Positions 5-17,992 of a stretch of 20,440 bases of DNA are shown here, in pieces. The stretch spans positions 1 to 20,440 of the forward strand of contig CANAXT010000025.1 in assembly GCA_947365915.1 (NCBI GenBank), in the 5' to 3' direction. This DNA is from an uncultured Mycoplasmatota bacterium (GTDB lineage Bacteria > Bacillota_I > Bacilli_A > RF39 > UBA660). Within the stretch, counting starts at the first letter, position 1; each line of letters starts with the position of its first letter. The notes beneath the pieces were generated by a model, which did no database searches, was not told where the DNA came from, and worked only from the letters and a program-made list of their open reading frames with translations. Position numbers and translations under genes: made by a program.

Positions 5-691
5 ATGTCAGAGATGGGGAACAAAATCCTTAAGACAAATTTAGCAATGGTGGAAAGCATTTCTCGTTTTGAGATGTATCAGGAAAAGAATGCTCATGCC
101 ATGTGCATTCTGGAAGGAATGGCAGCAGACGGGAAGGGGGATGAGTTTGTCCGGGAGAATAACAGGGAAAAGCAGGTGGAGATTTTTCTGGACGGGGGAG
201 AGGCAGGGGAGAAAAAAACCTTACTTTTTGTTGGTATTCTTGGGGAACTATCAGTTTTTCAGGATGGGAGCAGCCATCCGTTTAAGATGGTGCTGTATTC
301 TGCCACGAAATGGATGGATTTGGAGAAAAAGAGCCGTTCTTTCCAGAATATTCACATGACTTATGAAAGTCTTGTGAAACAGATCGTATCGGAATATGAC
401 GGCGGGGATTTGATTGACCGGCTGTCTTTTGGAAAGGAAACAGGGGAGCTGATTGTACAGTACGAGGAAACGGACTGGGAATTTATTAAAAGAATGGCAT
501 CCCATTTTAACGGAAGTATCCTGGCAGCCAGTGGATTTGGTTCCCCCAAGATTTTTTTTGGTGTCGAAAAGGAAATAGATGCGGGAAAATTGGAGCAGTT
601 CTCTTATTGGATTGAAAAGCGGTTTGACCAATACCGGGAGTGGTCTGCCGGAGGCTACCAGGATTATGGCGAGGTGGAATTACCCGTATGA
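5..691 (+). CDS. Contractile-tail baseplate hub / VgrG-gpD (phage late control D)-like protein, apparently 3'-truncated
   Basis: The 228-aa ORF contains the motif IVQYEETDWEFIKRMASHF, which resembles the Q-x-x-E-S-D-x-x-F-L-x-R-L signature of gpD/VgrG hub proteins. Its codon usage is G/C-ending (GGG, CGG, CTG, GAG), unlike the rest of the window. The ORF is shorter than typical family members (350 aa or more). The reading frame is open to the left edge, so the 5' end is not certain. Confidence 0.5.
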   Translation: MSEMGNKILKTNLAMVESISRFEMYQEKNAHAMCILEGMAADGKGDEFVRENNREKQVEIFLDGGEAGEKKTLLFVGILGELSVFQDGSSHPFKMVLYSATKWMDLEKKSRSFQNIHMTYESLVKQIVSEYDGGDLIDRLSFGKETGELIVQYEETDWEFIKRMASHFNGSILAASGFGSPKIFFGVEKEIDAGKLEQFSYWIEKRFDQYREWSAGGYQDYGEVELPV

Positions 692-1437
692 TGGCTTTAT
701 TTAAAGATCAAACAACAGAACGAATTGGATCAGTCAGAAGCTCTAGACATTACTTCTTAGACTATGTCTTAGAAAATGATGCCATCTATGTTCACTTTGG
801 ATGGAGCCCTCAAGCCCAATCCGACATTCCAGCACTAGGAATCAATAACATCAATGGAATTTATGATGGAGCAGGCTTTTGGAGAGATAGAACCCTAGGA
901 GTAGCTTATGAACATACAGCATATACAAACATAGAGAAAGTAGCTGCAATCGCAAAGTCAAGAGGCTATACAAGAGATACCAACAAAGAGTTACTACTCA
1001 ATTATAGTATAAAAGAAATTGGATTAGAAAAAATAGAAGGAGCCATAATCGCCAATTCAGTAACCATTCCATATTCACAAACACATACAACTAGTTATCA
1101 ATATAACCCAGAAACCAAAATGTATTTAAGAGCCATGAATGGATATGCCCATTTAGATGGAGTAACCAAACAACAATACACTACTAAAAATATCATCATT
1201 CAAAAAGTTAGAAACTATTCAATAGATTCCTATGGCAGACAAACCTTAAACAATATCGGAAATGGAACAGGATATTATATTACTAATGGATATGCCATTC
1301 CTATTACATGGTCAAAAGCAAGTAGAAGCGCTCAAACAAAATATCAATATCAAGATGGAACAGAAATCACAGTCAATGATGGGAACACATTTATTCAAAT
1401 AGAACCAATCAATATGACACCAACCTTTTTAGAATAG
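688..1437 (+). CDS. DUF3048 (YerB-like) domain protein, N-terminally truncated fragment
   Basis: GGITRMMALF...GSVRSSRHYFLDYVLENDAIYVHFGWSPQA matches the conserved DUF3048 core (GGITRF-A-F, VRSAR-YF, YVH-G). No signal peptide or lipobox and no N-terminal half are present. The first ATG is at 688, but the family motif GGITR is encoded upstream of it at 673-687, inside the overlap with the preceding ORF. Confidence 0.6.
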   Translation: MMALFKDQTTERIGSVRSSRHYFLDYVLENDAIYVHFGWSPQAQSDIPALGINNINGIYDGAGFWRDRTLGVAYEHTAYTNIEKVAAIAKSRGYTRDTNKELLLNYSIKEIGLEKIEGAIIANSVTIPYSQTHTTSYQYNPETKMYLRAMNGYAHLDGVTKQQYTTKNIIIQKVRNYSIDSYGRQTLNNIGNGTGYYITNGYAIPITWSKASRSAQTKYQYQDGTEITVNDGNTFIQIEPINMTPTFLE

Positions 1438-2093: not shown

Positions 2094-2170
2094 GTCTCCG
2101 TAGCTCAGTAGGATAGAGCGATTGCCTCCTAAGCAATAGGTCGTTGGTTCGATTCCAATCGGGGACGCCA
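2094..2170 (+). tRNA. tRNA-Arg (anticodon CCT), CCA encoded
   Basis: The cloverleaf was folded by hand. Acceptor GTCTCCG/CGGGGAC (one G-T pair), D stem GCTC/GAGC, anticodon stem ATTGC/GCAAT with loop CTCCTAA (anticodon CCT), T stem GTTGG/CCAAT with loop TTCGATT, discriminator G plus CCA. Total length is 77 nt. Confidence 0.9.
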
Positions 2171-4449: not shown

Positions 4450-6357
4450 ATGCAGAAGTACACATTTGAAAACTTAAACCCATATAAAAATACAATTTAT
4501 CAAGAATTTTATCAAAAACTATTTCAAGAACTAGGAATTGGAGGTGATTTGTTAGGATTTCCAGCAAATTGTAAAACTGTATATAGAAAAGCGATTTACA
4601 TGCCACAAAGATTTATGAATGTTCTTACAACACGTTCTATGAAATCATCTAGCAAAAAAATCCAAACAGCGCATTCTTATAAAACCAGTGAAAGAATGAT
4701 TGATACAAGATATGAACATATGTGTTTTGCTTATATGTTAGGTGTAGATTTTTTATTAATATTAGAAAAAAACGGATATCAAATAGACGCTAAAACCCAA
4801 ATTGCCTTTCTATTAAAACTATTGTTACACGATAATGGACATGGCCCATTTTCTCATCCATTTGAACAAATGGTAGATGGTTATAAAGGAATGCATGAAG
4901 ACATCGGAAACCGAAACATCTTAGAAGATCCTGAACTATATCAACATTTAGAAAACATTTATCCTGGTTTAGCACACAATATCGTTCACTTTGAAGAAAT
5001 GGACAAGTATGGGTTACAAGAATTAGTAGAAGGAGTCTTTGATTTAGATAGAGCCTCATTTTTAATCATAGATACTTGGTTATCTAATTCAAAATTATAT
5101 CCAGAAAATACAGAAGAACAATTAGAAAAACTGATTGATTCCATCTATCACATTTTTGAGCACATCATTCTAAGAAATGGAAAAGTATACTATCATCCAG
5201 CATGTTTCTATGATGTTGAATTCTTTTTAAAAAAGCGTGCTTATAATTATATACATATTTATAATGGATTAGAGCGATTGCTAGATGATATGTTATTACA
5301 TCAATATGGGGTATATTTATTACAAAAGCAAAATACTAAGGCCTTTTTAAGACCATTATTAGAGCCAGTCGGAGAGTTTCAAAGTTTTTTAAAAGAGATT
5401 AAAGAAAAGCAAGCAATGATCGATTTAGAACAATACTTTCATTATAGTGATGATGATATGCACCGCATTGTCATGCTTTCTCAATTAATAGAAAATGAAA
5501 ACCTCGAAAAATATGCAAGATTATTTTTGTCTTCTGAATATAGAATGAAAATTCCATTTGATATAGAACAAGTAGATCAAAAAACATGGGAAAAAGAAAC
5601 AAAAGAAAATCCAAATCTAATGTCTGCCAAAACCAAAATCAATATTTATAAAAGTACCGAAAAAGAACACATCATATTTATGGATCCAAAAACAGGAGAA
5701 ACAACAGACTTTAAAGATATGAAAGAGCGAACCCTAAATATTGATCCAATACAAGCTTATTATTTATACCATGAAAGAAAACCCAAACAAATGTTAAAGC
5801 ATGATCAAAGATTAAGACACATATTGGAAGATTATTTTTATAAAAATGCCATACCAATTCTTCGAATCTGTTTAACATGGCAATACGAAAATGAAGAAAA
5901 TTCCATTTTAAATCATTTAATTCCGTTATTAATACATATTGCCAAAAATAAACCATTAGAAGAATATGCAATGACAAAACAAATCACAATGAAACAAGTA
6001 TATACATTATTATCCTTTTATAGTGGAGATGAAAAGTGGGAAAATTATGCAAACTTTTTAAGACTTTCTCCTGAAGATTTAAGCATTTGCTTTATGGAAA
6101 TCAAAGTAGATCATCAAACTTTTATATCAGAATTAGAATGTATTTTAAAAGATAATATACCACTCACAGAAGAAACCCATCCAATAGAAAATTTGATTCA
6201 AATGCTGTGTATTTTCGGGCATGATGAAACAATATTCATAGATCAAGCCATATTAGAATCCAATTACTTTTCAGAAGAAACTAGAAAACAGATAAAAGGC
6301 CAAATTAGGAAATATAAAATAGGAAACAGTGGATATCAAAAAAAATATAAAATCTAA
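4450..6357 (+). CDS. SAMHD1/dGTPase-like HD-domain protein (putative dNTP triphosphohydrolase) with a long uncharacterised C-terminal region
   Basis: Ordered motifs are R-Y-E-H-M (RxxH), LLLHDNGHGPFSHPFE (HD at 4828-4833 plus the GHGPFSH signature), MHEDIG, and FDLDRASFLIID (DxD-R-x-x-[FY]). This order is typical of the dGTPase/SAMHD1 clade. An SD-like GGTGAG lies upstream. Confidence 0.8.
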   Translation: MQKYTFENLNPYKNTIYQEFYQKLFQELGIGGDLLGFPANCKTVYRKAIYMPQRFMNVLTTRSMKSSSKKIQTAHSYKTSERMIDTRYEHMCFAYMLGVDFLLILEKNGYQIDAKTQIAFLLKLLLHDNGHGPFSHPFEQMVDGYKGMHEDIGNRNILEDPELYQHLENIYPGLAHNIVHFEEMDKYGLQELVEGVFDLDRASFLIIDTWLSNSKLYPENTEEQLEKLIDSIYHIFEHIILRNGKVYYHPACFYDVEFFLKKRAYNYIHIYNGLERLLDDMLLHQYGVYLLQKQNTKAFLRPLLEPVGEFQSFLKEIKEKQAMIDLEQYFHYSDDDMHRIVMLSQLIENENLEKYARLFLSSEYRMKIPFDIEQVDQKTWEKETKENPNLMSAKTKINIYKSTEKEHIIFMDPKTGETTDFKDMKERTLNIDPIQAYYLYHERKPKQMLKHDQRLRHILEDYFYKNAIPILRICLTWQYENEENSILNHLIPLLIHIAKNKPLEEYAMTKQITMKQVYTLLSFYSGDEKWENYANFLRLSPEDLSICFMEIKVDHQTFISELECILKDNIPLTEETHPIENLIQMLCIFGHDETIFIDQAILESNYFSEETRKQIKGQIRKYKIGNSGYQKKYKI

Positions 6358-6416
6358 ACTTTTCATGATTCTACAATATACTAAAGGAAAGTAAAACCAA
6401 TGAAAACAAATATGCT

Positions 6417-6444
6417 TTGAAATATGCAAATATTATGATATAAT
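6417..6444 (+). promoter_or_regulatory. Putative sigma-A promoter of the avd-TR-RT unit (TTGAAA-N13-TGaTATAAT)
   Basis: The -35 TTGAAA is at 6417-6422 and the extended -10 TGATATAAT at 6436-6444, giving a 16-nt spacer. Confidence 0.5.
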
Positions 6445-6461
6445 AGCCCCAATTCAAATGA

Positions 6462-7073
6462 ATGAAAGGGAAAGTGATAATAGTGCTCCAAGTAAGTAGA
6501 AATAATAACTTAAAAATACCAAAAAAAATAGAGATTGATCAAGAAAAGATCAATAGCACTAATGACAGACTATTTGTAAAACAAGCGATCAAGACTGCTA
6601 ATGATCAAAAATTTGATATATCAAAAGAAAAAGAGAATATTGAGTTTGACAAAGAATTAAAAAGAGTTGAAAAAATTCCAATGAACTCTAGTGAATTAAT
6701 GGTAATCACCATAGTAAAAAAACTCGGGGCTTATATTATTGCAATCACAGAAAAATCACCAGCAAAATTTCGGGGAGTTTTTGTAAATAGGATGCAAAAT
6801 CTAACATTAGAGGTATTAGAACTATTATTACAAGCCAATTTTGTAAGAATCGATAGTATAGAACGAAAAAAAGAAAGAGAAGAATTTCAAAAAAATGCGA
6901 TTATAAAATTAAAAATGTTAGGATATATCTCCATGGTAGCAGAAAATTCTGGCTGCATATTATCACGACAATTCAAACAAATATCAATTCAAATTGGAGA
7001 AGCAATTAATCTAATCGCTGCTTGGAAAAAAAGTGATGATAATAGATGGAAAAATAGAACAAAATTAGAATAA
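6462..7073 (+). CDS. avd: Avd-like accessory variability determinant (four-helix-bundle protein, 23S rRNA-intervening-sequence protein family) with an N-terminal extension
   Basis: The C-terminal ~130 aa (from M74 at 6681) read SPAKFRGVFVNRMQNLTLEVLELLLQANF...R...AIIKLKMLGYISMVAE...LSRQFKQISIQIGEAINLIAAWKKS. This fits the helical pattern of DGR Avd proteins, and the gene sits directly 5' of the TR and RT. The start is uncertain (ATG 6462, GTG 6474 or ATG 6681). Confidence 0.75.
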   Translation: MKGKVIIVLQVSRNNNLKIPKKIEIDQEKINSTNDRLFVKQAIKTANDQKFDISKEKENIEFDKELKRVEKIPMNSSELMVITIVKKLGAYIIAITEKSPAKFRGVFVNRMQNLTLEVLELLLQANFVRIDSIERKKEREEFQKNAIIKLKMLGYISMVAENSGCILSRQFKQISIQIGEAINLIAAWKKSDDNRWKNRTKLE

Positions 7074-7437
7074 TGGATTTTAAGTCGAAAGGCTTTTAAT
7101 TAAGTAGAACGTTTATAATGTTCCAATCTGCTTGGTGTGTTGGGCCCTCGTGTCCGCGCCGTCTAATGGAATGGAAATAAGAACAACAAATATAGATACG
7201 AACGCAATGGTGTTATTCGCCCAGATTTGCTTTTGAAGAGATTTATAAAATCTAGAAAACAGGTCAGAGAAATATATTTTAAGTAAAATATATCAGAACT
7301 TTAAAGCAAAGGAACGTTCTACTTTTCTAACCGCTATAATAGCGCGGTGGATAAAATAAGAGTGTTCACACCAACAACAATAGGGATTTCTATTTTTGAA
7401 GGTTATATGGGACACTTTTTTAATTTTAGGTGATAGA
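7074..7437 (+). ncRNA. DGR non-coding region (template repeat plus structured flanks/spacer)
   Basis: This is a 364-nt ORF-free gap between avd and the RT. It contains the TR-like segment, a 38-nt adenine-free GC-rich block (7127-7164), several perfect local hairpins and long-range complementary segments (see findings). Confidence 0.6.
7161..7230 (+). repeat. Candidate DGR template repeat (TR) core
   Basis: 27 of the 70 nt are A. Read in the frame of the matching gene segment it has five AAY codons. It aligns without gaps at 54/70 to 8782-8851 and to the three identical paralogous segments. Confidence 0.6.
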
Positions 7438-8457
7438 ATGAATTTAGAAGAAATATTTAGTTTTGAAAATTTATATGTAGCGCATCAAAAATGTAGAAAA
7501 TCAAAGCAACACAAACGAGAAGTAATTAGTTTTGAAACAAATATATCAGAAAATATTTATAAGTTACAAAAAAGTTTAGTATCAAGAAAATATACAGTAG
7601 GAAAATATAAAGAATTTACCATATACGAGCCGAAAGAAAGGCTTATACAAGCTCTTCCATATAAAGATAGAGTAATATTGAGATGCTTTTGTGATATAGT
7701 TTTGATTCCCAAAATAGAAAGTAAATTGATCAATGATAATGTAGCTTGTAGAAAAACAAAAGGAACAGATTACGGAATGAATCGTCTAGCCTTTTTTCTA
7801 AGAAAAGAATACATGAAAAAGAATGACAATAAAATTTATTATTTAAAATGTGATATAAAGAAGTATTTTCCTAGTATAGATCATGAGATACTATTAAAAT
7901 TATTAGAAAAAATCAATTTTTCGAATGATGAAAGATGGTTTATAGAGAAAATAATTAGAGAACAACCAGATAAGGCCAAAAAGGGATTGGCGTTAGGGAA
8001 TCAATCCAGTCAATGGTTCGCTTTATATTATTTAAATAGAATAGATCGATTCATTAAAGAAGAACTAAGAGTAAAATGGTATGTAAGATATATGGATGAT
8101 TTTATACTAATACATAGAGATAAAAAATTTTTACAATATTGTTTGTTAAGAATTGATGAAGTTTGCAAGCAAGAATTGAATATAGAATTAAATAAAAAAA
8201 CACAAATTGGACGAGTGTGTAATGGAATTGATTTTTTAGGATTTAGACATATACTTACAAGTAATGGAAAAATCATAAAAAGGCTTCGTCGCTCTTCGAA
8301 GAAAAGAATGATAAAACATATGAAAACAATATGTAAATTAAAGGAAAAAAGTATAATTGATGAAGAGTATATGAAAATGAGAATAAATGCTTATAAGGCG
8401 CATATTAAATATTCAAATGAGAAAAGATTAAAAGCTGAATTAAAAGAGTGGGAGTAA
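7438..8457 (+). CDS. DGR-class reverse transcriptase
   Basis: - **N-terminus:** ENLYVAHQKCRKSKQHKREV.
- **Early motifs:** YEPKERLIQALPYKDRV and ACRKTKGT.
- **DGR-diagnostic motif:** LALGNQSSQWFALYYLN ([ILV]GxxxSQ) at 7993-8013.
- **Catalytic motif:** YVRYMDDFILI, with YMDD at 8089-8100.
- **Late motif:** GIDFLGFR.
- **Start:** ATG 7438 is preceded by AGGTGA at 7428-7433, so the TTG at 7396 is unlikely to be the start. Confidence 0.9.
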   Translation: MNLEEIFSFENLYVAHQKCRKSKQHKREVISFETNISENIYKLQKSLVSRKYTVGKYKEFTIYEPKERLIQALPYKDRVILRCFCDIVLIPKIESKLINDNVACRKTKGTDYGMNRLAFFLRKEYMKKNDNKIYYLKCDIKKYFPSIDHEILLKLLEKINFSNDERWFIEKIIREQPDKAKKGLALGNQSSQWFALYYLNRIDRFIKEELRVKWYVRYMDDFILIHRDKKFLQYCLLRIDEVCKQELNIELNKKTQIGRVCNGIDFLGFRHILTSNGKIIKRLRRSSKKRMIKHMKTICKLKEKSIIDEEYMKMRINAYKAHIKYSNEKRLKAELKEWE

Positions 8458-8512
8458 ATATATTCAAATTAGAACTAATTCGTCTTAAATAAAATACATT
8501 TATACTATTTTA

Positions 8513-8521
8513 TGATATAAT
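8513..8521 (+). promoter_or_regulatory. Possible extended -10 element (TGaTATAAT) upstream of ATPase copy 1
   Basis: TGATATAAT lies 21 nt upstream of the start codon. The -35 is poor (AATACA). The same -10 region is retained in diverged form upstream of copies 2-4. Confidence 0.4.
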
Positions 8522-8541
8522 ATAAAGCGGTGGTGAGAGTT

Positions 8542-10425
8542 ATGTTTGAACAACAATTAACATTAATGTCTGAAGGACAAATATGGGGAAATGATCAAGA
8601 AGCCCAGTTAGAAGTGATAAAAAAGTATGGATCAAAAGCGGCCATAACAGATCTAGCAATATTAACAGGTGCTTATGTGTGTGAAGATACTACCCGAAAT
8701 ATCAAAGAGGATAATAGTTTATCTGGAAGAGTTGGTTGGCAATGGACTCGATCAGATGATAGATATGGAGATGTCCTCGATGTCTCATGTACTGGAGATA
8801 AGAACATCAAATTTATCTGCTATCGCGCTGGTGTTATTCGTCCAGTTTTACAATCTTCTAACATTTTTTCATTAATTGTACCAAACAGAGTGAGAGGATA
8901 TAACGAGACAGAAGAAGTAGAATATGGAGAATATCCTCAGAATGCAGTAGAAAAAAATATGCAACAGCAATTAGGATCGGAATATATATCTGGAAATCTT
9001 TGCAAAACAGGAAGAAATTATACATTTGATTCTAGAAAGTATGATGATTATAGTAATGGTTTTTTAGGAATTACCTATGATGAATATGAATATGCAGGAA
9101 AAAAGTATATTCGAGTTCAAGCCAATTCTTGCTATGGTGGAAATGAATTTCAATTATCCAATGAAGAAAAATATAAAAATGGAGATTATGTTTGGATTGA
9201 AGTCCAACCAGTTAAATGGTTAATTGATGATAGAACAGGATTACTAATTTCTAAAAAAGGACTGCTATCAGGAATTCGATTTCTTGAGCGGGAGTCTAAA
9301 TATAACGGAGATTTTGATACAACTGAAATGAAAATGTATCTCGATGAACATATGTCAAAAGATTTATTTCAAACAGCATCTTTGAATTTGTCACAAAAAC
9401 CAAAACCTCAAAAAATAAAAAATCCTTATGGATTTGATTTTGGACAAGTGAGTGAAGAAGAAATTATTAAAGGTGCAATAGAAAGTAATGTACCAGTATT
9501 CTTACACGGACCCTCATCAGAGGGAAAAAGTGCTAGAGTCAAGCAAATTGATCCAACATGTGAGATTGTGTATTTGAGAAATGCGACACCAGAAAGTTTA
9601 AATGGAAAAAGTGTCTATAACGCAGAAACAGGAGAAATGATTGACATAGAACCAACATGGTTAAAAAAACTAAGAACCAAATGCGAAACAGAGCCAGATC
9701 GCTTACATATCTTATTTTTTGATGAGATCACAAATGCTTTACCAAGCATTCAAGGAAGTGCTTTTAATATCGTACTAGATAAAGAAGTAAATGGGACTTG
9801 GAAATTACCAGAAAACGCAAGAATTGTAGCTGCAGGAAATGAAATGAAGGATTCTCTAGCAGCGAACAAGTTAGCAGAACCACTATTTAATAGGTTCGCC
9901 CATGTTTATATTAAAACAACAACCGAATCATGGTTAAAATGGGCAAGTGAAAATAACATTCACCCAGCAATATACTGCTATATCGCCTATAAAAACGGAA
10001 CTACATTAAGAAGCAAATATGATGGAGAAAAGCCAAATGCGGATCCAAGAAAATGGGAAATGGCATCAAAAATGTTATATGCTACAAAAAATCCAGAGAT
10101 GTTACGAGCATTAGTCGGAGAAGAAATCACAAAAGAATTTGTAGCATTTTGTAAACAACAAGTAATTACATTAGAAGATGTAATTAATAGAAATTATACA
10201 AAAGAAAGTTTAGAACAATTAAATGTAGCTGAAAAAAGTGCAACCATTATAGGATTATCAGCTGTAGGAATAGAACACCTAGAAGAAGTAAGAGACTTTG
10301 CTTACTTCTTAGGAAAAGAATTTGGAGCCACATTTGATACCTTATGGGCTCATGGAGAAGAAGAAAGATTAGAAATGATTGCTGAACTGAAATTGCAAAA
10401 TAAACAAGGAGGTGTCAAAAAATAA
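8542..10425 (+). CDS. N-terminal putative ligand-binding domain fused to a MoxR/AAA_5-type ATPase (copy 1, putative DGR target)
   Basis: - **Size:** 627 aa.
- **ATPase half:** Walker A GPSSEGKS (9508-9531), Walker B ILFFDE (DE at 9721-9726), sensor-1-like IVAAGNE and EPLFNRF.
- **N-terminal ~290 aa:** GWQWTRSDD...GVIRPVL and WIEVQPVKWLIDD...LLISKK motifs, reminiscent of W-x-L-R-S / G-V-R-P-A-L domains of Firmicutes.
- **Start:** ATG 8542 (MFEQQ) is shared by all four copies and preceded by GGTGGTGAG. Confidence 0.9.
   Translation: MFEQQLTLMSEGQIWGNDQEAQLEVIKKYGSKAAITDLAILTGAYVCEDTTRNIKEDNSLSGRVGWQWTRSDDRYGDVLDVSCTGDKNIKFICYRAGVIRPVLQSSNIFSLIVPNRVRGYNETEEVEYGEYPQNAVEKNMQQQLGSEYISGNLCKTGRNYTFDSRKYDDYSNGFLGITYDEYEYAGKKYIRVQANSCYGGNEFQLSNEEKYKNGDYVWIEVQPVKWLIDDRTGLLISKKGLLSGIRFLERESKYNGDFDTTEMKMYLDEHMSKDLFQTASLNLSQKPKPQKIKNPYGFDFGQVSEEEIIKGAIESNVPVFLHGPSSEGKSARVKQIDPTCEIVYLRNATPESLNGKSVYNAETGEMIDIEPTWLKKLRTKCETEPDRLHILFFDEITNALPSIQGSAFNIVLDKEVNGTWKLPENARIVAAGNEMKDSLAANKLAEPLFNRFAHVYIKTTTESWLKWASENNIHPAIYCYIAYKNGTTLRSKYDGEKPNADPRKWEMASKMLYATKNPEMLRALVGEEITKEFVAFCKQQVITLEDVINRNYTKESLEQLNVAEKSATIIGLSAVGIEHLEEVRDFAYFLGKEFGATFDTLWAHGEEERLEMIAELKLQNKQGGVKK
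8782..8851 (+). repeat. Candidate variable repeat (VR) 1, codons 81-103 of ATPase copy 1
   Basis: It aligns without gaps to TR 7161-7230 at 54/70 identity. 11 of the 16 mismatches lie at TR adenines. Confidence 0.55.
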
Positions 10426-10796
10426 TGAAAGAAAAAAAAGAAGTATTATTATCTTATATGCAAGCCAATGTTGCTCCAATATTGGTAGACTTTATGACAG
10501 GAGAAGAAATTGGAGCTTCAATAATACTAGATGCCAAAATAGAAAAAACAGAATTAAACGGCCATTATGAAGGATTAGAATATTGTCCACCAAACTGGTT
10601 TACCAAGAATCCAAATCTATTAGTGATAGATAAAATAGACAAAATCGATAAAGAGGAACAACTAAAATTTTATGAATTATTAAAATATAGAAAAATATCA
10701 ACATTTGAATTATCGCCCAACTGTATTATCATTGTAACTGCCAAAGAAACAAAAAAGATCCATAAAGAATTGTATTCTTTAATGGCACAAATATAA
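10425..10796 (+). CDS. Small AAA+-like fragment protein lacking a Walker A motif
   Basis: The 123-aa product contains LLVIDKIDKIDKEEQLKFYELLKYRKI...NCIIIVTAKE, which looks like a Walker-B / sensor-1 segment of an AAA+ core (DKID instead of DEID) with no P-loop. Its ATG overlaps the upstream stop (TAATG), and AGGAGGTG at 10407-10414 serves as the SD. Confidence 0.7.
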   Translation: MKEKKEVLLSYMQANVAPILVDFMTGEEIGASIILDAKIEKTELNGHYEGLEYCPPNWFTKNPNLLVIDKIDKIDKEEQLKFYELLKYRKISTFELSPNCIIIVTAKETKKIHKELYSLMAQI

Positions 10797-10805
10797 AGGT
10801 GACTT

Positions 10806-12125
10806 ATGAAATATGATATTGAAGCAGTCAAACGAAAAATGTTGATTAAATATCCTTTTTTTGGTAGTGTCACTGCCAATGTAGACTATAAAGAAACAGT
10901 AGAAATAGATACTATGGCAACGGATGGAGAGACAATATATTATAATCGAAAATATGTAGAAACACTAGATCAATCAGAACAGATTTTTGTATTTGCGCAT
11001 GAAGTATGTCATATCGCTTTTAATCATATCATGAAAAGTGATGGAAAAGTTCCAAAAATATGGAATATGGCAACAGATGCAGTAATCAATCAATGGTTAA
11101 AAAAAGACAAATTAACAATGCCTCAGTCTGGAGTAAACATTGAAGATGCAATAAATTATGATGCCGAAGAATTATATGAAAAATTACTAGAAGAACAAGC
11201 AAAGAATCAACAAACGAAAAAGAATACAGAAGATCACCAATCTCAAGAACAACAAACCGAGGAAAAAGAAGAACAAGATGTTGGTCATGATACACATCGT
11301 ATGTGGCCAGAAGCAGTAAAAAAAAGAAAGCAGGAAGAAAAAACAGAAAATTCAGGAGAACAAAAACAAAATGATGAAGAAGAAAATGTAGTACGACAAA
11401 AACAAAAAGAATTAGAAAAATTGGGAGAAAGTGAATCTTTTTCAAAAAATCGTGAACTTAAAAAAAGAAATTTAGAAGAATTAAAGCGAGAAATTATAGA
11501 AAGTTCTCTACAAGCTGGAACAAAAACGAATGGAGAAACAAGAAGCTTAGAAAACATAGGAGCATCAAAACCACTAATTGATTGGAGATACATATTAAGA
11601 GAAACAATAAATTATGAAGTGGATTGGTCGTATAAAAATGCAACAATAGAAGATGGAGTTGTTACTCCATATTTAGAAGAACAACAAGTTCCAAAAACAG
11701 AGATTTTACTAGATACTAGTGAATCAGTCTCAACAGCATTGTTAAAAAACTTTGTAAGAGAATGTAAAAACATAGTGCAATATTCTAAAGTAGAAGTTGG
11801 TTGTTTTGATACAAGATTTTATGGATTTCATGAAATTAGAACAGAAGAAGACATAGAAAAAATGGACTATCAAGGTAGAGGAGGAACAGACTTTAATGTA
11901 GCAGTAGAAGCTTTTTCAAGAAGGGTAGAAAATAAAATTATTTTTACAGATGGACAAGCCCCTATGCCAGAAATGACAATCGATGCAATTTGGATTGTGT
12001 ATGGTGGTAAAAAGATAAAACCACGTGGTGGAAGAGTAATTCATATTACAGATGAACAACTGAAAAAATTACAATTTGGCGAGAAATCAAATGAATTAAA
12101 TGAAAACAAAAATAAACTGAAGTAA
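10806..12125 (+). CDS. DUF2201-type putative zinc metallopeptidase (HExxH) with a C-terminal VWA-like domain
   Basis: - **N-terminal part:** YPFFGSV...MATDGETIYYN...FVFAHEVCHIAFNH (HEVCH at 10998-11012)...WNMATDAVINQWL. This resembles the family I recall as Pfam DUF2201_N.
- **Linker:** E/K/Q-rich low-complexity region.
- **C-terminal part:** LLDTSESVS...GGTDF...IIFTDGQ, a VWA-like, MIDAS-like D-x-S-x-S pattern.
- **Context:** This is a typical partner of MoxR AAA+ ATPases. Confidence 0.85.
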   Translation: MKYDIEAVKRKMLIKYPFFGSVTANVDYKETVEIDTMATDGETIYYNRKYVETLDQSEQIFVFAHEVCHIAFNHIMKSDGKVPKIWNMATDAVINQWLKKDKLTMPQSGVNIEDAINYDAEELYEKLLEEQAKNQQTKKNTEDHQSQEQQTEEKEEQDVGHDTHRMWPEAVKKRKQEEKTENSGEQKQNDEEENVVRQKQKELEKLGESESFSKNRELKKRNLEELKREIIESSLQAGTKTNGETRSLENIGASKPLIDWRYILRETINYEVDWSYKNATIEDGVVTPYLEEQQVPKTEILLDTSESVSTALLKNFVRECKNIVQYSKVEVGCFDTRFYGFHEIRTEEDIEKMDYQGRGGTDFNVAVEAFSRRVENKIIFTDGQAPMPEMTIDAIWIVYGGKKIKPRGGRVIHITDEQLKKLQFGEKSNELNENKNKLK

Positions 12126-12131
12126 AATAAA

Positions 12132-12159
12132 TTGACTTTTAAGCAATTTATGATATAGT
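12132..12159 (+). promoter_or_regulatory. Putative sigma-A promoter of ATPase copy 2 (TTGACT-N13-TGaTATAGT)
   Basis: The -35 TTGACT is at 12132-12137 and the extended -10 TGATATAGT at 12151-12159. It lies 7 nt after the stop of the VWA gene. Confidence 0.6.
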
Positions 12160-12177
12160 AATAAGCCGGTGATGATA

Positions 12178-14061
12178 ATGTTTGAACAACAATTAACATT
12201 AATGTCTGAAGGACAAATATGGGGAAATGATCAAGAAGCCCAGTTAGAAGTGATAAAAAAGTATGGATCAAAAGCGGCCATAACAGATCTAGCAATATTA
12301 ACAGGTGCTTATGTGTGTGAAGATACTACCCGAAATATCAAAGAGGATAATAGTTTATCTGGAAGAGTTGGTTGGCAATGGACTCGATCAGATGATAGAT
12401 ATGGAGATGTCCTCGATGTCTCATGTACTGGAGATAAGAACATCAAATTTATCTGCTATCGCGCTGGTGTTATTCGTCCAGTTTTACAATCTTCTAACAT
12501 TTTTTCATTAATTGTACCAAACAGAGTGAGAGGATATAACGAGACAGAAGAAGTAGAATATGGAGAATATCCTCAGAATGCAGTAGAAAAAAATATGCAA
12601 CAGCAATTAGGATCGGAATATATATCTGGAAATCTTTGCAAAACAGGAAGAAATTATACATTTGATTCTAGAAAGTATGATGATTATAGTAATGGTTTTT
12701 TAGGAATTACCTATGATGAATATGAATATGCAGGAAAAAAGTATATTCGAGTTCAAGCCAATTCTTGCTATGGTGGAAATGAATTTCAATTATCCAATGA
12801 AGAAAAATATAAAAATGGAGATTATGTTTGGATTGAAGTCCAACCAGTTAAATGGTTAATTGATGATAGAACAGGATTACTAATTTCTAAAAAAGGACTG
12901 CTATCAGGAATTCGATTTCTTGAGCGGGAGTCTAAATATAACGGAGATTTTGATACAACTGAAATGAAAATGTATCTCGATGAACATATGTCAAAAGATT
13001 TATTTCAAACAGCATCTTTGAATTTGTCACAAAAACCAAAACCTCAAAAAATAAAAAATCCTTATGGATTTGATTTTGGACAAGTGAGTGAAGAAGAAAT
13101 TATTAAAGGTGCAATAGAAAGTAATGTACCAGTATTCTTACACGGACCCTCATCAGAGGGAAAAAGTGCTAGAGTCAAGCAAATTGATCCAACATGTGAG
13201 ATTGTGTATTTGAGAAATGCGACACCAGAAAGTTTAAATGGAAAAAGTGTCTATAACGCAGAAACAGGAGAAATGATTGACATAGAACCAACATGGTTAA
13301 AAAAACTAAGAACCAAATGCGAAACAGAGCCAGATCGCTTACATATCTTATTTTTTGATGAGATCACAAATGCTTTACCAAGCATTCAAGGAAGTGCTTT
13401 TAATATCGTACTAGATAAAGAAGTAAATGGGACTTGGAAATTACCAGAAAACGCAAGAATTGTAGCTGCAGGAAATGAAATGAAGGATTCTCTAGCAGCG
13501 AACAAGTTAGCAGAACCACTATTTAATAGGTTCGCCCATGTTTATATTAAAACAACAACCGAATCATGGTTAAAATGGGCAAGTGAAAATAACATTCACC
13601 CAGCAATATACTGCTATATCGCCTATAAAAACGGAACTACATTAAGAAGCAAATATGATGGAGAAAAGCCAAATGCGGATCCAAGAAAATGGGAAATGGC
13701 ATCAAAAATGTTATATGCTACAAAAAATCCAGAGATGTTACGAGCATTAGTCGGAGAAGAAATCACAAAAGAATTTGTAGCATTTTGTAAACAACAAGTA
13801 ATTACATTAGAAGATGTAATTAATAGAAATTATACAAAAGAAAGTTTAGAACAATTAAATGTAGCTGAAAAAAGTGCAACCATTATAGGATTATCAGCTG
13901 TAGGAATAGAACACCTAGAAGAAGTAAGAGACTTCGCTTACTTCTTAGGAAAAGAATTTGGGGCTACATTTGATACATTATGGACTCACAGAGAAGAAGA
14001 ACGATTAGAAATAATTGCAGAACTGAAAGCAAAACAAAAAGAATATAGAATTGCTATATAA
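12178..14061 (+). CDS. Ligand-binding domain / MoxR-type AAA+ ATPase fusion (copy 2)
   Basis: The product is identical to copy 1 at the protein level through residue ~590. It then has a diverged C-terminal tail (TLWTHREEERLEIIAELKAKQKEYRIAI). ATG 12178 is preceded by GGTGA. Confidence 0.9.
   Translation: MFEQQLTLMSEGQIWGNDQEAQLEVIKKYGSKAAITDLAILTGAYVCEDTTRNIKEDNSLSGRVGWQWTRSDDRYGDVLDVSCTGDKNIKFICYRAGVIRPVLQSSNIFSLIVPNRVRGYNETEEVEYGEYPQNAVEKNMQQQLGSEYISGNLCKTGRNYTFDSRKYDDYSNGFLGITYDEYEYAGKKYIRVQANSCYGGNEFQLSNEEKYKNGDYVWIEVQPVKWLIDDRTGLLISKKGLLSGIRFLERESKYNGDFDTTEMKMYLDEHMSKDLFQTASLNLSQKPKPQKIKNPYGFDFGQVSEEEIIKGAIESNVPVFLHGPSSEGKSARVKQIDPTCEIVYLRNATPESLNGKSVYNAETGEMIDIEPTWLKKLRTKCETEPDRLHILFFDEITNALPSIQGSAFNIVLDKEVNGTWKLPENARIVAAGNEMKDSLAANKLAEPLFNRFAHVYIKTTTESWLKWASENNIHPAIYCYIAYKNGTTLRSKYDGEKPNADPRKWEMASKMLYATKNPEMLRALVGEEITKEFVAFCKQQVITLEDVINRNYTKESLEQLNVAEKSATIIGLSAVGIEHLEEVRDFAYFLGKEFGATFDTLWTHREEERLEIIAELKAKQKEYRIAI
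12418..12487 (+). repeat. Candidate VR 2
   Basis: By visual comparison it has the same 70-nt sequence as 8782-8851. Confidence 0.5.
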
Positions 14062-14099
14062 AAAGTATAGTGATTTTTTTAAAAACCTAGTAAAATGAA

Positions 14100-14127
14100 T
14101 TGACTTTTAAACAATTTATGATATAGT
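14100..14127 (+). promoter_or_regulatory. Putative sigma-A promoter of ATPase copy 3
   Basis: TTGACT-N13-TGATATAGT. This is a duplicate of the copy 2 promoter with one base substitution in the spacer. Confidence 0.6.
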
Positions 14128-14144
14128 AATAGCCGGTGATGATA

Positions 14145-16028
14145 ATGTTTGAACAACAATTAACATTAATGTCTGAAGGACAAATATGGGGAAATGATCA
14201 AGAAGCCCAGTTAGAAGTGATAAAAAAGTATGGATCAAAAGCGGCCATAACAGATCTAGCAATATTAACAGGTGCTTATGTGTGTGAAGATACTACCCGA
14301 AATATCAAAGAGGATAATAGTTTATCTGGAAGAGTTGGTTGGCAATGGACTCGATCAGATGATAGATATGGAGATGTCCTCGATGTCTCATGTACTGGAG
14401 ATAAGAACATCAAATTTATCTGCTATCGCGCTGGTGTTATTCGTCCAGTTTTACAATCTTCTAACATTTTTTCATTAATTGTACCAAACAGAGTGAGAGG
14501 ATATAACGAGACAGAAGAAGTAGAATATGGAGAATATCCTCAGAATGCAGTAGAAAAAAATATGCAACAGCAATTAGGATCGGAATATATATCTGGAAAT
14601 CTTTGCAAAACAGGAAGAAATTATACATTTGATTCTAGAAAGTATGATGATTATAGTAATGGTTTTTTAGGAATTACCTATGATGAATATGAATATGCAG
14701 GAAAAAAGTATATTCGAGTTCAAGCCAATTCTTGCTATGGTGGAAATGAATTTCAATTATCCAATGAAGAAAAATATAAAAATGGAGATTATGTTTGGAT
14801 TGAAGTCCAACCAGTTAAATGGTTAATTGATGATAGAACAGGATTACTAATTTCTAAAAAAGGACTGCTATCAGGAATTCGATTTCTTGAGCGGGAGTCT
14901 AAATATAACGGAGATTTTGATACAACTGAAATGAAAATGTATCTCGATGAACATATGTCAAAAGATTTATTTCAAACAGCATCTTTGAATTTGTCACAAA
15001 AACCAAAACCTCAAAAAATAAAAAATCCTTATGGATTTGATTTTGGACAAGTGAGTGAAGAAGAAATTATTAAAGGTGCAATAGAAAGTAATGTACCAGT
15101 ATTCTTACACGGACCCTCATCAGAGGGAAAAAGTGCTAGAGTCAAGCAAATTGATCCAACATGTGAGATTGTGTATTTGAGAAATGCGACACCAGAAAGT
15201 TTAAATGGAAAAAGTGTCTATAACGCAGAAACAGGAGAAATGATTGACATAGAACCAACATGGTTAAAAAAACTAAGAACCAAATGCGAAACAGAGCCAG
15301 ATCGCTTACATATCTTATTTTTTGATGAGATCACAAATGCTTTACCAAGCATTCAAGGAAGTGCTTTTAATATCGTACTAGATAAAGAAGTAAATGGGAC
15401 TTGGAAATTACCAGAAAACGCAAGAATTGTAGCTGCAGGAAATGAAATGAAGGATTCTCTAGCAGCGAACAAGTTAGCAGAACCACTATTTAATAGGTTC
15501 GCCCATGTTTATATTAAAACAACAACCGAATCATGGTTAAAATGGGCAAGTGAAAATAACATTCACCCAGCAATATACTGCTATATCGCCTATAAAAACG
15601 GAACTACATTAAGAAGCAAATATGATGGAGAAAAGCCAAATGCGGATCCAAGAAAATGGGAAATGGCATCAAAAATGTTATATGCTACAAAAAATCCAGA
15701 GATGTTACGAGCATTAGTCGGAGAAGAAATCACAAAAGAATTTGTAGCATTTTGTAAACAACAAGTAATTACATTAGAAGATGTAATTAATAGAAATTAT
15801 ACAAAAGAAAGTTTAGAACAATTAAATGTAGCTGAAAAAAGTGCAACCATTATAGGATTATCAGCTGTAGGAATAGAACACCTAGAAGAAGTAAGAGACT
15901 TCGCTTACTTCTTAGGAAAAGAATTTGGGGCTACATTTGATACATTATGGACTCACAGAGAAGAAGAACGATTAGAAATAATTGCAGAACTGAAAGCAAA
16001 ACAAAAAGAATATAGAATTGCTATATAA
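14145..16028 (+). CDS. Ligand-binding domain / MoxR-type AAA+ ATPase fusion (copy 3)
   Basis: The protein is identical to copy 2 over all 627 aa. The flanking intergenic sequence is also identical. Confidence 0.9.
   Translation: MFEQQLTLMSEGQIWGNDQEAQLEVIKKYGSKAAITDLAILTGAYVCEDTTRNIKEDNSLSGRVGWQWTRSDDRYGDVLDVSCTGDKNIKFICYRAGVIRPVLQSSNIFSLIVPNRVRGYNETEEVEYGEYPQNAVEKNMQQQLGSEYISGNLCKTGRNYTFDSRKYDDYSNGFLGITYDEYEYAGKKYIRVQANSCYGGNEFQLSNEEKYKNGDYVWIEVQPVKWLIDDRTGLLISKKGLLSGIRFLERESKYNGDFDTTEMKMYLDEHMSKDLFQTASLNLSQKPKPQKIKNPYGFDFGQVSEEEIIKGAIESNVPVFLHGPSSEGKSARVKQIDPTCEIVYLRNATPESLNGKSVYNAETGEMIDIEPTWLKKLRTKCETEPDRLHILFFDEITNALPSIQGSAFNIVLDKEVNGTWKLPENARIVAAGNEMKDSLAANKLAEPLFNRFAHVYIKTTTESWLKWASENNIHPAIYCYIAYKNGTTLRSKYDGEKPNADPRKWEMASKMLYATKNPEMLRALVGEEITKEFVAFCKQQVITLEDVINRNYTKESLEQLNVAEKSATIIGLSAVGIEHLEEVRDFAYFLGKEFGATFDTLWTHREEERLEIIAELKAKQKEYRIAI
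14385..14454 (+). repeat. Candidate VR 3
   Basis: Same 70-nt sequence as 8782-8851. Confidence 0.5.
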
Positions 16029-16066
16029 AAAGTATAGTGATTTTTTTAAAAACCTAGTAAAATGAA

Positions 16067-16094
16067 TTGACTTTTAAACAATTTATGATATAGT
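16067..16094 (+). promoter_or_regulatory. Putative sigma-A promoter of ATPase copy 4
   Basis: TTGACT-N13-TGATATAGT, identical to the copy 3 promoter. Confidence 0.6.
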
Positions 16095-16111
16095 AATAGC
16101 CGGTGATGATA

Positions 16112-17992
16112 ATGTTTGAACAACAATTAACATTAATGTCTGAAGGACAAATATGGGGAAATGATCAAGAAGCCCAGTTAGAAGTGATAAAAAAGTATGG
16201 ATCAAAAGCGGCCATAACAGATCTAGCAATATTAACAGGTGCTTATGTGTGTGAAGATACTACCCGAAATATCAAAGAGGATAATAGTTTATCTGGAAGA
16301 GTTGGTTGGCAATGGACTCGATCAGATGATAGATATGGAGATGTCCTCGATGTCTCATGTACTGGAGATAAGAACATCAAATTTATCTGCTATCGCGCTG
16401 GTGTTATTCGTCCAGTTTTACAATCTTCTAACATTTTTTCATTAATTGTACCAAACAGAGTGAGAGGATATAACGAGACAGAAGAAGTAGAATATGGAGA
16501 ATATCCTCAGAATGCAGTAGAAAAAAATATGCAACAGCAATTAGGATCGGAATATATATCTGGAAATCTTTGCAAAACAGGAAGAAATTATACATTTGAT
16601 TCTAGAAAGTATGATGATTATAGTAATGGTTTTTTAGGAATTACCTATGATGAATATGAATATGCAGGAAAAAAGTATATTCGAGTTCAAGCCAATTCTT
16701 GCTATGGTGGAAATGAATTTCAATTATCCAATGAAGAAAAATATAAAAATGGAGATTATGTTTGGATTGAAGTCCAACCAGTTAAATGGTTAATTGATGA
16801 TAGAACAGGATTACTAATTTCTAAAAAAGGACTGCTATCAGGAATTCGATTTCTTGAGCGGGAGTCTAAATATAACGGAGATTTTGATACAACTGAAATG
16901 AAAATGTATCTCGATGAACATATGTCAAAAGATTTATTTCAAACAGCATCTTTGAATTTGTCACAAAAACCAAAACCTCAAAAAATAAAAAATCCTTATG
17001 GATTTGATTTTGGACAAGTGAGTGAAGAAGAAATTATTAAAGGTGCAATAGAAAGTAATGTACCAGTATTCTTACACGGACCCTCATCAGAGGGAAAAAG
17101 TGCTAGAGTCAAGCAAATTGATCCAACATGTGAGATTGTGTATTTGAGAAATGCGACACCAGAAAGTTTAAATGGAAAAAGTGTCTATAACGCAGAAACA
17201 GGAGAAATGATTGACATAGAACCAACATGGTTAAAAAAACTAAGAACCAAATGCGAAACAGAGCCAGATCGCTTACATATCTTATTTTTTGATGAGATCA
17301 CAAATGCTTTACCAAGCATTCAAGGAAGTGCTTTTAATATCGTACTAGATAAAGAAGTAAATGGGACTTGGAAATTACCAGAAAACGCAAGAATTGTAGC
17401 TGCAGGAAATGAAATGAAGGATTCTCTAGCAGCGAACAAGTTAGCAGAACCACTATTTAATAGGTTCGCCCATGTTTATATTAAAACAACAACCGAATCA
17501 TGGTTAAAATGGGCAAGTGAAAATAACATTCACCCAGCAATATACTGCTATATCGCCTATAAAAACGGAACTACATTAAGAAGCAAATATGATGGAGAAA
17601 AGCCAAATGCGGATCCAAGAAAATGGGAAATGGCATCAAAAATGTTATATGCTACAAAAAATCCAGAGATGTTACGAGCATTAGTCGGAGAAGAAATCAC
17701 AAAAGAATTTGTAGCATTTTGTAAACAACAAGTAATTACATTAGAAGATGTAATTAATAGAAATTATACAAAAGAAAGTTTAGAACAATTAAATGTAGCT
17801 GAAAAAAGTGCAACCATTATAGGATTATCAGCTGTAGGAATAGAACACCTAGAAGAAGTAAGAGACTTTGCTTACTTCTTAGGAAAAGAATTTGGAGCCA
17901 CATTTGATACATTATGGACTCACGGAGAAGAAGAACGATTAGAAATAATTGCAGAATTGAAGGCAAAACAAAAAGTGAAAATAAAAAATTAG
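16112..17992 (+). CDS. Ligand-binding domain / MoxR-type AAA+ ATPase fusion (copy 4)
   Basis: The 626-aa product is identical to the other copies except for the last ~30 residues (TLWTHGEEERLEIIAELKAKQKVKIKN). Confidence 0.9.
   Translation: MFEQQLTLMSEGQIWGNDQEAQLEVIKKYGSKAAITDLAILTGAYVCEDTTRNIKEDNSLSGRVGWQWTRSDDRYGDVLDVSCTGDKNIKFICYRAGVIRPVLQSSNIFSLIVPNRVRGYNETEEVEYGEYPQNAVEKNMQQQLGSEYISGNLCKTGRNYTFDSRKYDDYSNGFLGITYDEYEYAGKKYIRVQANSCYGGNEFQLSNEEKYKNGDYVWIEVQPVKWLIDDRTGLLISKKGLLSGIRFLERESKYNGDFDTTEMKMYLDEHMSKDLFQTASLNLSQKPKPQKIKNPYGFDFGQVSEEEIIKGAIESNVPVFLHGPSSEGKSARVKQIDPTCEIVYLRNATPESLNGKSVYNAETGEMIDIEPTWLKKLRTKCETEPDRLHILFFDEITNALPSIQGSAFNIVLDKEVNGTWKLPENARIVAAGNEMKDSLAANKLAEPLFNRFAHVYIKTTTESWLKWASENNIHPAIYCYIAYKNGTTLRSKYDGEKPNADPRKWEMASKMLYATKNPEMLRALVGEEITKEFVAFCKQQVITLEDVINRNYTKESLEQLNVAEKSATIIGLSAVGIEHLEEVRDFAYFLGKEFGATFDTLWTHGEEERLEIIAELKAKQKVKIKN
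16352..16421 (+). repeat. Candidate VR 4
   Basis: Same 70-nt sequence as 8782-8851. Confidence 0.5.

Follow-up and report, generated by a model that had tools for sequence, protein, structure and literature searches.

A diversity-generating retroelement with intact machinery, drifted targets and probably no current activity in an uncultured Mycoplasmatota bacterium

The stretch of DNA analyzed here in full (hereafter the window: 20,440 nucleotides (nt), contig CANAXT010000025.1 of an uncultured Mycoplasmatota bacterium) contains a diversity-generating retroelement (DGR) in which an accessory gene (avd), a template RNA and a reverse transcriptase (RT) gene precede an array of four tandem target genes. 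The core of the locus is a canonical DGR. We put at roughly 80% the probability that the region as a whole is a bona fide DGR whose machinery is intact, whose targets have drifted and which is most likely quiescent. A promoter-like site, avd, a 364-nt gap and the RT gene are contiguous and all on the plus strand at 6417-8457, where a first-pass annotation of the same DNA had placed them and in the shared orientation that it described. The cassette had also been called complete; its avd gene, template repeat (TR) RNA and RT are indeed present, and it becomes complete only with the downstream targets at 8530-17992, which that annotation did not include. A comparison with phage records returned nothing meaningful matching positions 6400-12200.

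The window has a G+C content of 31%, and in this AT-rich region 18 promoter-like sites were observed where 14 were expected. The top-scoring site within 6300-8600 lies at 6417-6444 (plus strand), 5' of avd, and has the sigma-70-type sequence TTGAAA-16-TG-TATAAT, matching the consensus at 11 of 12 positions. On the strength of this consensus match it is a candidate promoter, and avd, the template RNA and the RT would probably be co-transcribed from it.

The RT gene (7438-8457, plus strand) encodes a product of 339 amino acids (aa) that bears both of the motifs first reported for it, LGNQSSQ, which fits the DGR-diagnostic pattern [ILV]GxxxSQ and spans aa 186-192 (nt 7993-8013), and YMDD, which spans aa 218-221 (nt 8089-8100), and an identical 339-aa product is present in a public protein collection. 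Among solved structures, the best sequence match is a 328-aa RT represented by PDB 8ub7 and eight further entries (8e-40, residues 16-314), presumably the DGR enzyme of the Bordetella phage (bRT). The next-best solved RT reaches only 1e-10, thirty orders of magnitude weaker. The protein also matches phrog_1423 at 3.6e-103, and a Pfam scan returned RVT_1 only. Neither retron, group II nor UG/Abi enzymes offered a better fit: NCBIfam scores stayed far under the curated cut-offs for group II (82 against 300 bits, E-value 4e-23), Drt3a (56 against 200 bits, 5e-15), retron St85 (47 against 235 bits, 2.5e-12) and Drt5 (25 against 550 bits), while the best PADLOC model was that of a generic RT (8e-33), with the UG models (UG4/UG17) at about 1e-23 to 1e-24. 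Aligned with 19 relatives, the enzyme breaks with near-invariant residues just once, through the conservative substitution V80I. The matches to 8ub7 and phrog_1423, the sub-cut-off scores of other classes and this single departure together argue that the enzyme is of the DGR type and shows no sign of decay.

The gene avd (6462-7073, plus strand) encodes 203 aa and matches the PHROG family "Avd protein of DGR" at 3.3e-13. Its matches to NCBIfam DivGenRetAVD (1.8e-4) and Pfam bAvd (3.3e-4) span the whole of each profile and fall under both curated cut-offs. An AlphaFold2 (AF2) model built from 23 homologues contains helices at residues 76-98, 101-126, 133-162 and 168-202, an Avd-type four-helix bundle occupying aa 76-202 (about nt 6687-7067). 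In Foldseek this model superposes on 2gsc, 2rld and 4dwl with template modelling (TM) scores of 0.79-0.85 and a probability of 1.0, and 4dwl is deposited as "Avd molecule from Bordetella bacteriophage DGR". Fold comparison alone found bAvd, as PDB sequence searches with the single Avd sequence and with a 14-sequence profile did not return it. The NCBI record of one homologue reads "four helix bundle protein [Bacilli bacterium]". The gene had therefore been recognized correctly as a four-helix-bundle gene; its start, which had been set at 6681, is very probably 6462, because the N-terminal extension of about 75 aa is conserved (55-78% identity among relatives), the related locus L002 has no methionine at the position equivalent to 6681, and the identical 203-aa product is present in the public protein collection. 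The presence on record of the exact 203-aa and 339-aa products fits start codons at 6462 and 7438. The extension (residues 1-73, 6462-6680, with the segments NLKIPKKIE... and KIPxNS...) was modelled with low confidence and is missing from the Avd of a Kurthia phage locus (L003). A weak MazF-like match to it (E 0.06) was treated as chance.

Between avd and the RT gene lies the gap of 364 nt (7074-7437), in which no open reading frame (ORF) of at least 50 aa was found save a TTG extension of the RT frame. The absence of a gene here agrees with the first-pass annotation; the adenine-rich segment that it cited in addition does not help, and was ruled out as evidence for a DGR since the plus strand as a whole is 42% A and such a segment does not stand out on it. 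The gap itself is 34% A, and only its part 7170-7210 reaches 54% A (92nd percentile). The template is marked out by its match to downstream genes, not by its adenine content. The TR, 78 nt at 7151-7228 (plus strand), matches four variable repeats (VRs) at 77% identity in a repeat search, at 8772-8849, 12408-12485, 14375-14452 and 16342-16419, and homologous TRs occur in relatives. Sixty of the 78 positions are identical between TR and VR, compared with 42.5 +/- 0.85 in shuffled gaps, and when both window strands were scanned with tolerance for adenine changes, the TR matched nothing beyond the four known sites. All four VRs are identical to one another. The 18 differences that separate them from the template fall at 11 of the 27 template adenines and at 7 of the 51 other bases (Fisher p = 0.009), and an eighth non-adenine difference lies at 7229, one base beyond the end of the repeat. 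The adenine bias is thus real, and it is not exclusive.

Read in the frame of the targets, the TR encodes VRAV*WNGNKNNKYRYERNGVIRPDL; the TAA at 7164-7166 is in frame. Its codons are rich in AAY, which is typical of DGR templates. The closest relatives have AAT in place of this TAA. The template of L002 likewise contains an in-frame TAA, and the VR of that locus has two stops that split the target ORF (9700-9760, 11341-11454).

The gap also encodes a conserved RNA structure. Intergenic regions between avd and the RT from 18 related loci were aligned and folded with RNAalifold, and pair counts were compared with those of 500 shuffles. Six helices with 48 pairs were recovered. Across the alignment 95.4% of cells are paired, whereas shuffles reach 85.4% and slid partners about 50%. 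Compensatory changes affect 32 of the 48 pairs, compared with 13.8 in shuffles, and no shuffle of the 500 reached 32. The RNA matches no family in Rfam, whose one match in the window is a tRNA. The first helix, a small 5' hairpin (AGUC-GAAA-GGCU, 7083-7094), has four pairs, each with compensatory changes. It is followed by a 13-bp long-range helix that closes the template into a loop (7102-7114 with 7312-7324), whose 5' arm begins 29 nt after the avd stop and in which 7 of the 13 pairs have changed on both sides. The 3' end of the TR, UUUGCUUU (7226-7233), pairs with the spacer segment AAAGCAAA (7303-7310) in a duplex of eight pairs, 100% paired and four of them compensatory. On the 3' side of the TR stands a 9-bp stem with an AAGU tetraloop (7272-7293; compensatory changes in 8/9 pairs). 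A stem-loop comes straight after the long-range helix and is followed by an A-rich run (7326-7351; seven pairs, three compensatory), and a distal stem precedes the RT start (7361-7367 with 7410-7416; compensatory changes in 6/7 pairs). All of these elements are on the plus strand.

In the cryo-electron microscopy structure of the Bordetella DGR ribonucleoprotein, a TR:spacer (Sp) template:primer duplex ends in the priming adenosine Sp A56, which G57 follows, and is adjoined by an upstream:Sp "cPRT Stop" duplex with a mean length of 13 bp over 207 DGRs; that RNA also includes a stem-loop plus adenosines, and the Avd-binding stem usually has 9 bp and a tetraloop (bioRxiv 10.1101/2023.10.23.563531). 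Whereas the covariation of the helices in the window and its relatives is a result, their mapping onto these Bordetella elements is one that we infer. By analogy, the helix 7102-7114:7312-7324 would take the place of the avd:Sp "cPRT Stop" duplex, and 7226-7233:7303-7310 that of the template:primer duplex that TR forms with Sp. The stem at 7272-7293 would correspond to the Avd-binding stem-loop, and 7326-7351 with its A-rich run to the cPRT Stop stem-loop plus adenosines. The putative priming site would then be A7310/G7311, with A7225 as the probable first templated base. The steps of the proposed mechanism are modelled on the Bordetella system. Two long-range helices would bracket the 78-nt template, and the Avd-RT complex would prime complementary DNA (cDNA) at the spacer adenosine beside the template 3' end. 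The template would be copied back towards 7115 with misincorporation opposite adenines, and the cDNA would then replace the 78-nt VR (codons 82-107) in the downstream targets.

The four tandem target paralogues are about 630 aa each, with the VR near the N-terminus at codons 82-107. Copy 1 (8530-10425, plus strand; about 627-631 aa, with a probable start at ATG 8542) contains VR1 at 8772-8849 (aa 82-107) and consists of an N-terminal module of about 290 aa followed by an AAA+ ATPase, apparently MoxR-like, with Walker A (GPSSEGKS, aa 327) and Walker B (ILFFDE, aa 394) motifs. The C-terminal half matches the phrog_1297 ATPase at 2.8e-45, and its matches to Pfam AAA_5 and Sigma54_activat are weak and under cut-off. 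No hydrophobic segment was found in the target protein, so it is presumably cytosolic. Two further genes of the target operon follow, both syntenic in relatives: a small ORF of 123 aa (10425-10796, plus strand) with no family match, and a gene (10806-12125, plus strand) for a zincin-like metallopeptidase (HEVCH at aa 65) joined to a VWA-like domain, which matches DUF2201_N at 2e-32 and the DUF2201 VWA-like family at 1.7e-13.

Copies 2 (12169-14061, VR2 12408-12485), 3 (14136-16028, VR3 14375-14452) and 4 (16103-17992, VR4 16342-16419) lie beyond this gene on the plus strand, each behind its own promoter-like site, TTGACT-16-TG-TATAGT, at 12132-12159, 14100-14127 and 16067-16094, respectively. 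Among the loci seen, these three extra copies after the DUF2201 gene occur only in the window. An interior of 1,757 nt (8542-10298 in copy 1) is 100% identical across all four copies, while about 10% divergence, in a mosaic pattern, is seen in their 5' leaders and final ~120 nt, copies 1 and 4 agreeing at 10299, 10326 and 10329. Such a combination of identical interior and mosaic ends is what gene conversion or unequal crossing-over leaves behind.

RT-based scans for loci related to the window yielded 11 from genomes, 8 viral ones and 47 from metagenomes, the metagenome loci being mainly of human-gut origin. Mapping by tblastn placed the RT and then the target gene in about 25 loci, and on the longer contigs the whole series can be followed, from avd through TR, RT, target and small ORF to DUF2201. 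With 75% identity, the L023 enzyme is the nearest to the window RT. The number of non-adenine differences between TR and VR, read by eye for each repeat from printed alignments, is 0-1 in loci with an intact RT (L001, L002, L003, L026, L027, L028, L032, L036 and L062) and 2-6 in those with a truncated, split or frameshifted RT (L033, L056/L061 and L059/L060). The window, with its RT intact, has 7-8. L028 and L033 have two targets each, and there the VR variant differs from one copy to the other. Target homologues that are 70% identical to the window protein are hypervariable only at aa 86-100, and by-eye comparison equates these residues with the codons whose first two positions are adenines in the L023-type template. 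The VR of L023 itself (9338-9408) has an apparent 1-nt indel relative to its own template. Decay of the DGR is common in this group, while the ATPase operon stays intact (L055, L056, L059-L062, L033), the damage to the RT being loss of the first ~105 aa, a frameshift or an interrupting stop codon. At L012-L014, an operon of ATPase, small ORF and DUF2201 genes, 70% identical to that of the window, has pheST/pfkB/smr on one side and spoU/rimM/trmD on the other, and neither an RT nor a DGR lies within 10 kb. Because the variable segment of this clade is nonetheless hypervariable between genomes, a remote or lost DGR is implied.

Homing resets every non-adenine position, so several ordinary substitutions must have arisen in the window since the last homing event. 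With the templates of relatives as an outgroup, the TR/VR changes can be polarized: at least four non-adenine changes are on the VR side, namely CGC>CTC (R83L), GCC>GAT (A84D), AGA>ATC (R96I) and CGC>CGT, and one, AAA>GAA, is on the template side. The TR and VR of the window also have derived states in common that are not in the closest relatives (GTT ATT; TAA/TCA), and therefore the window template wrote the window repeat at least once after it had diverged. As non-adenine TR/VR differences have accumulated and the four repeats are identical, retrohoming into the local targets has most likely been absent for a long time and the element is most likely quiescent. The TR/VR pair is too imperfect to claim current activity, and the variation among paralogues that would speak for ongoing diversification is missing, all four repeats being the same.

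Several observations weigh against this account of a genuine, dormant DGR. The differences between repeats are not restricted to template adenines (11/18), and stringent DGR finders would probably reject a pair with only 61% adenine mismatches. No GC-rich initiation of mutagenic homing (IMH) sequence or hairpin was found 3' of the VR, where there are only AT-rich inverted repeats of 6-8 nt and the DNA fold has a z-score of +1.14; relatives L027 and L028 likewise have no GC-rich IMH or hairpin, and the IMH requirement was established for Bordetella and may not be universal. The AF2 model of the N-terminal 297 aa of the target (predicted local distance difference test (pLDDT) 71, predicted TM-score (pTM) 0.76) found no Foldseek match in the PDB or BFVD. 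The intact RT, Avd and RNA imply continued selection, which is awkward for a long dormancy, and the identity of the repeats could have come from very recent gene conversion instead.

The last two points are the starting ground for the strongest competing explanation, that the DGR is fully active and that a recent gene-conversion or amplification sweep, or consensus polishing of long reads, accounts for both identical repeats and mismatches. The RT, Avd and every RNA helix are intact; the 100% identical interiors, ends differing by about 10% and mosaic 3' ends of the copies are a signature of concerted evolution; and the derived states common to TR and VR record at least one homing after this template diverged. 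We nevertheless consider full activity unlikely, as neither gene conversion nor polishing is able to create mismatches to the template, the polarized changes (at least four on the VR side and one on the TR side) postdate the last homing, and relatives with an intact RT have 0-1 non-adenine mismatches. Somewhat less probable again is that the template now serves a perfectly matching VR elsewhere in the genome, the four local repeats being obsolete former targets. Remote targets do exist among relatives, as the L012-L014 clade illustrates with VRs that are hypervariable although no DGR lies within 10 kb at these loci, and the window is nearly the whole of a 20,458-nt contig, so that the remainder of the genome lies outside the analysis. 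Against this, neither strand of the window contains a further TR match, and the in-frame TAA of the template would be harmful for any target. A search of a metagenome collection with the template adenines wild-carded gave no match, not even to the template itself, the collection being without this organism. The idea that the RT is that of a retron, a group II intron or an Abi/UG/DRT defence system, with the upstream ORF and the repeat coincidental, is already effectively refuted: generic profiles of the retron, group II, Drt and UG classes do match the enzyme, but all the NCBIfam matches are far below curated cut-offs, 8ub7 outscores any other solved RT by 30 orders of magnitude, and the locus also has Avd, the TR/VR pair, an RNA of DGR type that covaries, and a gene order shared with relatives whose differences are adenine-only.

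The variable part of the targets belongs to a large family. The first 297 aa of the target have 1,620 representative relatives at E <= 1e-3, in which the module is stand-alone (~300 aa), fused to the ATPase or tandemly duplicated. Four proteins related to target residues 1-297 (P0366, P0371, P0385 and P0496) contain this ~290-aa variable unit alone, duplicated in tandem or joined to DUF4116 or ankyrin repeats where the window has the ATPase, which is how a mobile module behaves. A Pfam scan of the window's own N-terminal module gave no match. Weak signals of DUF6273 appear in the sister protein P0088 (0.018), in the relative P0371 (26.3 bits summed) and in an hhalign comparison (E 0.0026, probability 11%). 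These matches are confined to the C-terminal, repeat-bearing part of the profile, and that of P0371 straddles the junction between two tandem modules. That junction raised the idea of a circularly permuted DUF6273, which found no support, because permuted constructs still lacked a match to the profile's N-terminal half (P0088 permuted, 9e-4).

The prototype for comparison is the Bordetella phage BPP-1 DGR (mtd-avd-TR-brt), with which the window shares the order avd-TR-RT, a four-helix-bundle Avd and an RT that among solved structures is closest to bRT, if 8ub7 is that enzyme as we assume. The differences are several. The window targets are 3' of the RT and four in tandem, whereas BPP-1 has one target, on the 5' side; the VR lies near the N-terminus of an ATPase in place of the C-terminus of a tail-fibre C-type lectin; and the window Avd has the N-terminal extension of about 75 aa. 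In BPP-1 the long-range duplex has its 5' arm inside avd; in the window that arm is located 29 nt past the avd stop. Finally, unlike BPP-1, the window has no detected GC-rich IMH or hairpin, and its template contains an in-frame stop.

DUF6273-type DGR targets are described from gut Firmicute phages (tentaclins, Faecalibacterium prophages), and in phage DGRs the VR is at the C-terminus of DUF6273, a lectin-like domain (PMC10743442, PMC11792537). The window targets resemble them in the VR motif W[LT]RS...RP[AV]L and in the location of the repeat at the C-terminal end of the profile, and resemble tentaclins in that the variable domain is N-terminal. The RT of the Kurthia populi prophage locus L003 is 42% identical to that of the window. 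Unlike these systems, the window protein has no DUF6273 match that reaches threshold, its partner domain is an AAA+ ATPase instead of Ig-like or tail-fibre domains, and its context is chromosomal and operonic, not a phage tail module. N-terminal VRs are rare, being present in 3/372 DGRs in addition to tentaclins. Multi-target DGRs make up about 15% of DGRs, with up to eight tandem targets in Stenotrophomonas (PMC5758913). The window is like them in having one template for several tandem paralogous targets and differs in that its four VRs are identical, as opposed to the copies of L028 and L033.

MoxR-vWA "VMAP ternary" systems of cyanobacteria and purple sulfur bacteria are linked to DGRs and have been read as intracellular sensor/effector conflict systems (PMC7159879; PMC10907252). 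The window likewise has a partner with a vWA domain (DUF2201) alongside its ATPase gene. In contrast to the ternary systems, it carries the variable module on the ATPase, as an N-terminal fusion, where they have it on the vWA protein; its vWA-like domain forms one protein with a zincin-type metallopeptidase (DUF2201_N); and the hosts are low-GC, gut Bacilli-like bacteria instead of multicellular cyanobacteria or Chromatiales. Scans of the window ORFs with Pfam, NCBIfam and PADLOC found no VMAP, trypsin, caspase, EAD, TIR or adaptor domains. In the literature searched, we found nothing on a DGR together with DUF2201, and no description of low-GC gut bacteria in which an ATPase-fused variable module is paired with a DUF2201 VWA-metallopeptidase.

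These parallels permit a speculative extension, which we advance tentatively and regard as possible without thinking it probable. In a widespread family of low-GC bacteria of the human gut, the DGR might rewrite the N-terminal, ligand-binding module of an intracellular MoxR-like ATPase that, together with the VWA-metallopeptidase, could form a programmable immune or conflict sensor. Tandem copies would then provide a repertoire of multiple specificities, and the stop in the template could switch individual copies ON or OFF. If the module is a sensor, the concept of DGR-diversified intracellular antigen sensors, proposed for multicellular cyanobacteria and purple sulfur bacteria, would reach ordinary gut bacteria as well. 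The class of ATPase targets is the interesting part of the locus, given its lack of a hydrophobic segment, its AAA+ fusion and VWA-metallopeptidase partner, and the 1,620 representative relatives of its N-terminal module. The cassette itself is a clean and compact example from a low-GC gut bacterium in which every known RNA element is recognizable via covariation. With its intact machinery, drifted targets and template stop, the window forms, alongside the relatives with broken RTs, a natural series on how DGRs are switched off and lost.

Elsewhere in the window, the 635-aa ORF that precedes the promoter-like site (4450-6357, plus strand) contains an HD-type motif, LLHDNGHGPFSHPFE, which resembles that of deoxynucleoside triphosphate triphosphohydrolases. 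Nothing significant was found for this ORF in Pfam, NCBIfam, PADLOC or PHROGs, and it was rejected as a DGR component because it is missing from all related loci. At the start of the window, a weak VgrG/baseplate-hub-like fragment (5-691, plus strand; TIGR01646, 4.6e-9, far under cut-off) may, judging from this match, be the remnant of a contractile-injection or phage-tail gene, and a 265-aa ORF without a family match overlaps it (640-1437, plus strand). A tRNA-Arg (CCT) gene lies at 2094-2170 (plus strand). Directly 3' of the target array are two neighboring genes of the sigma-70 family (18125-19066 and 19082-20440, plus strand), which have DNA segments of ~71-77% identity in common (repeat families D12 and D17).

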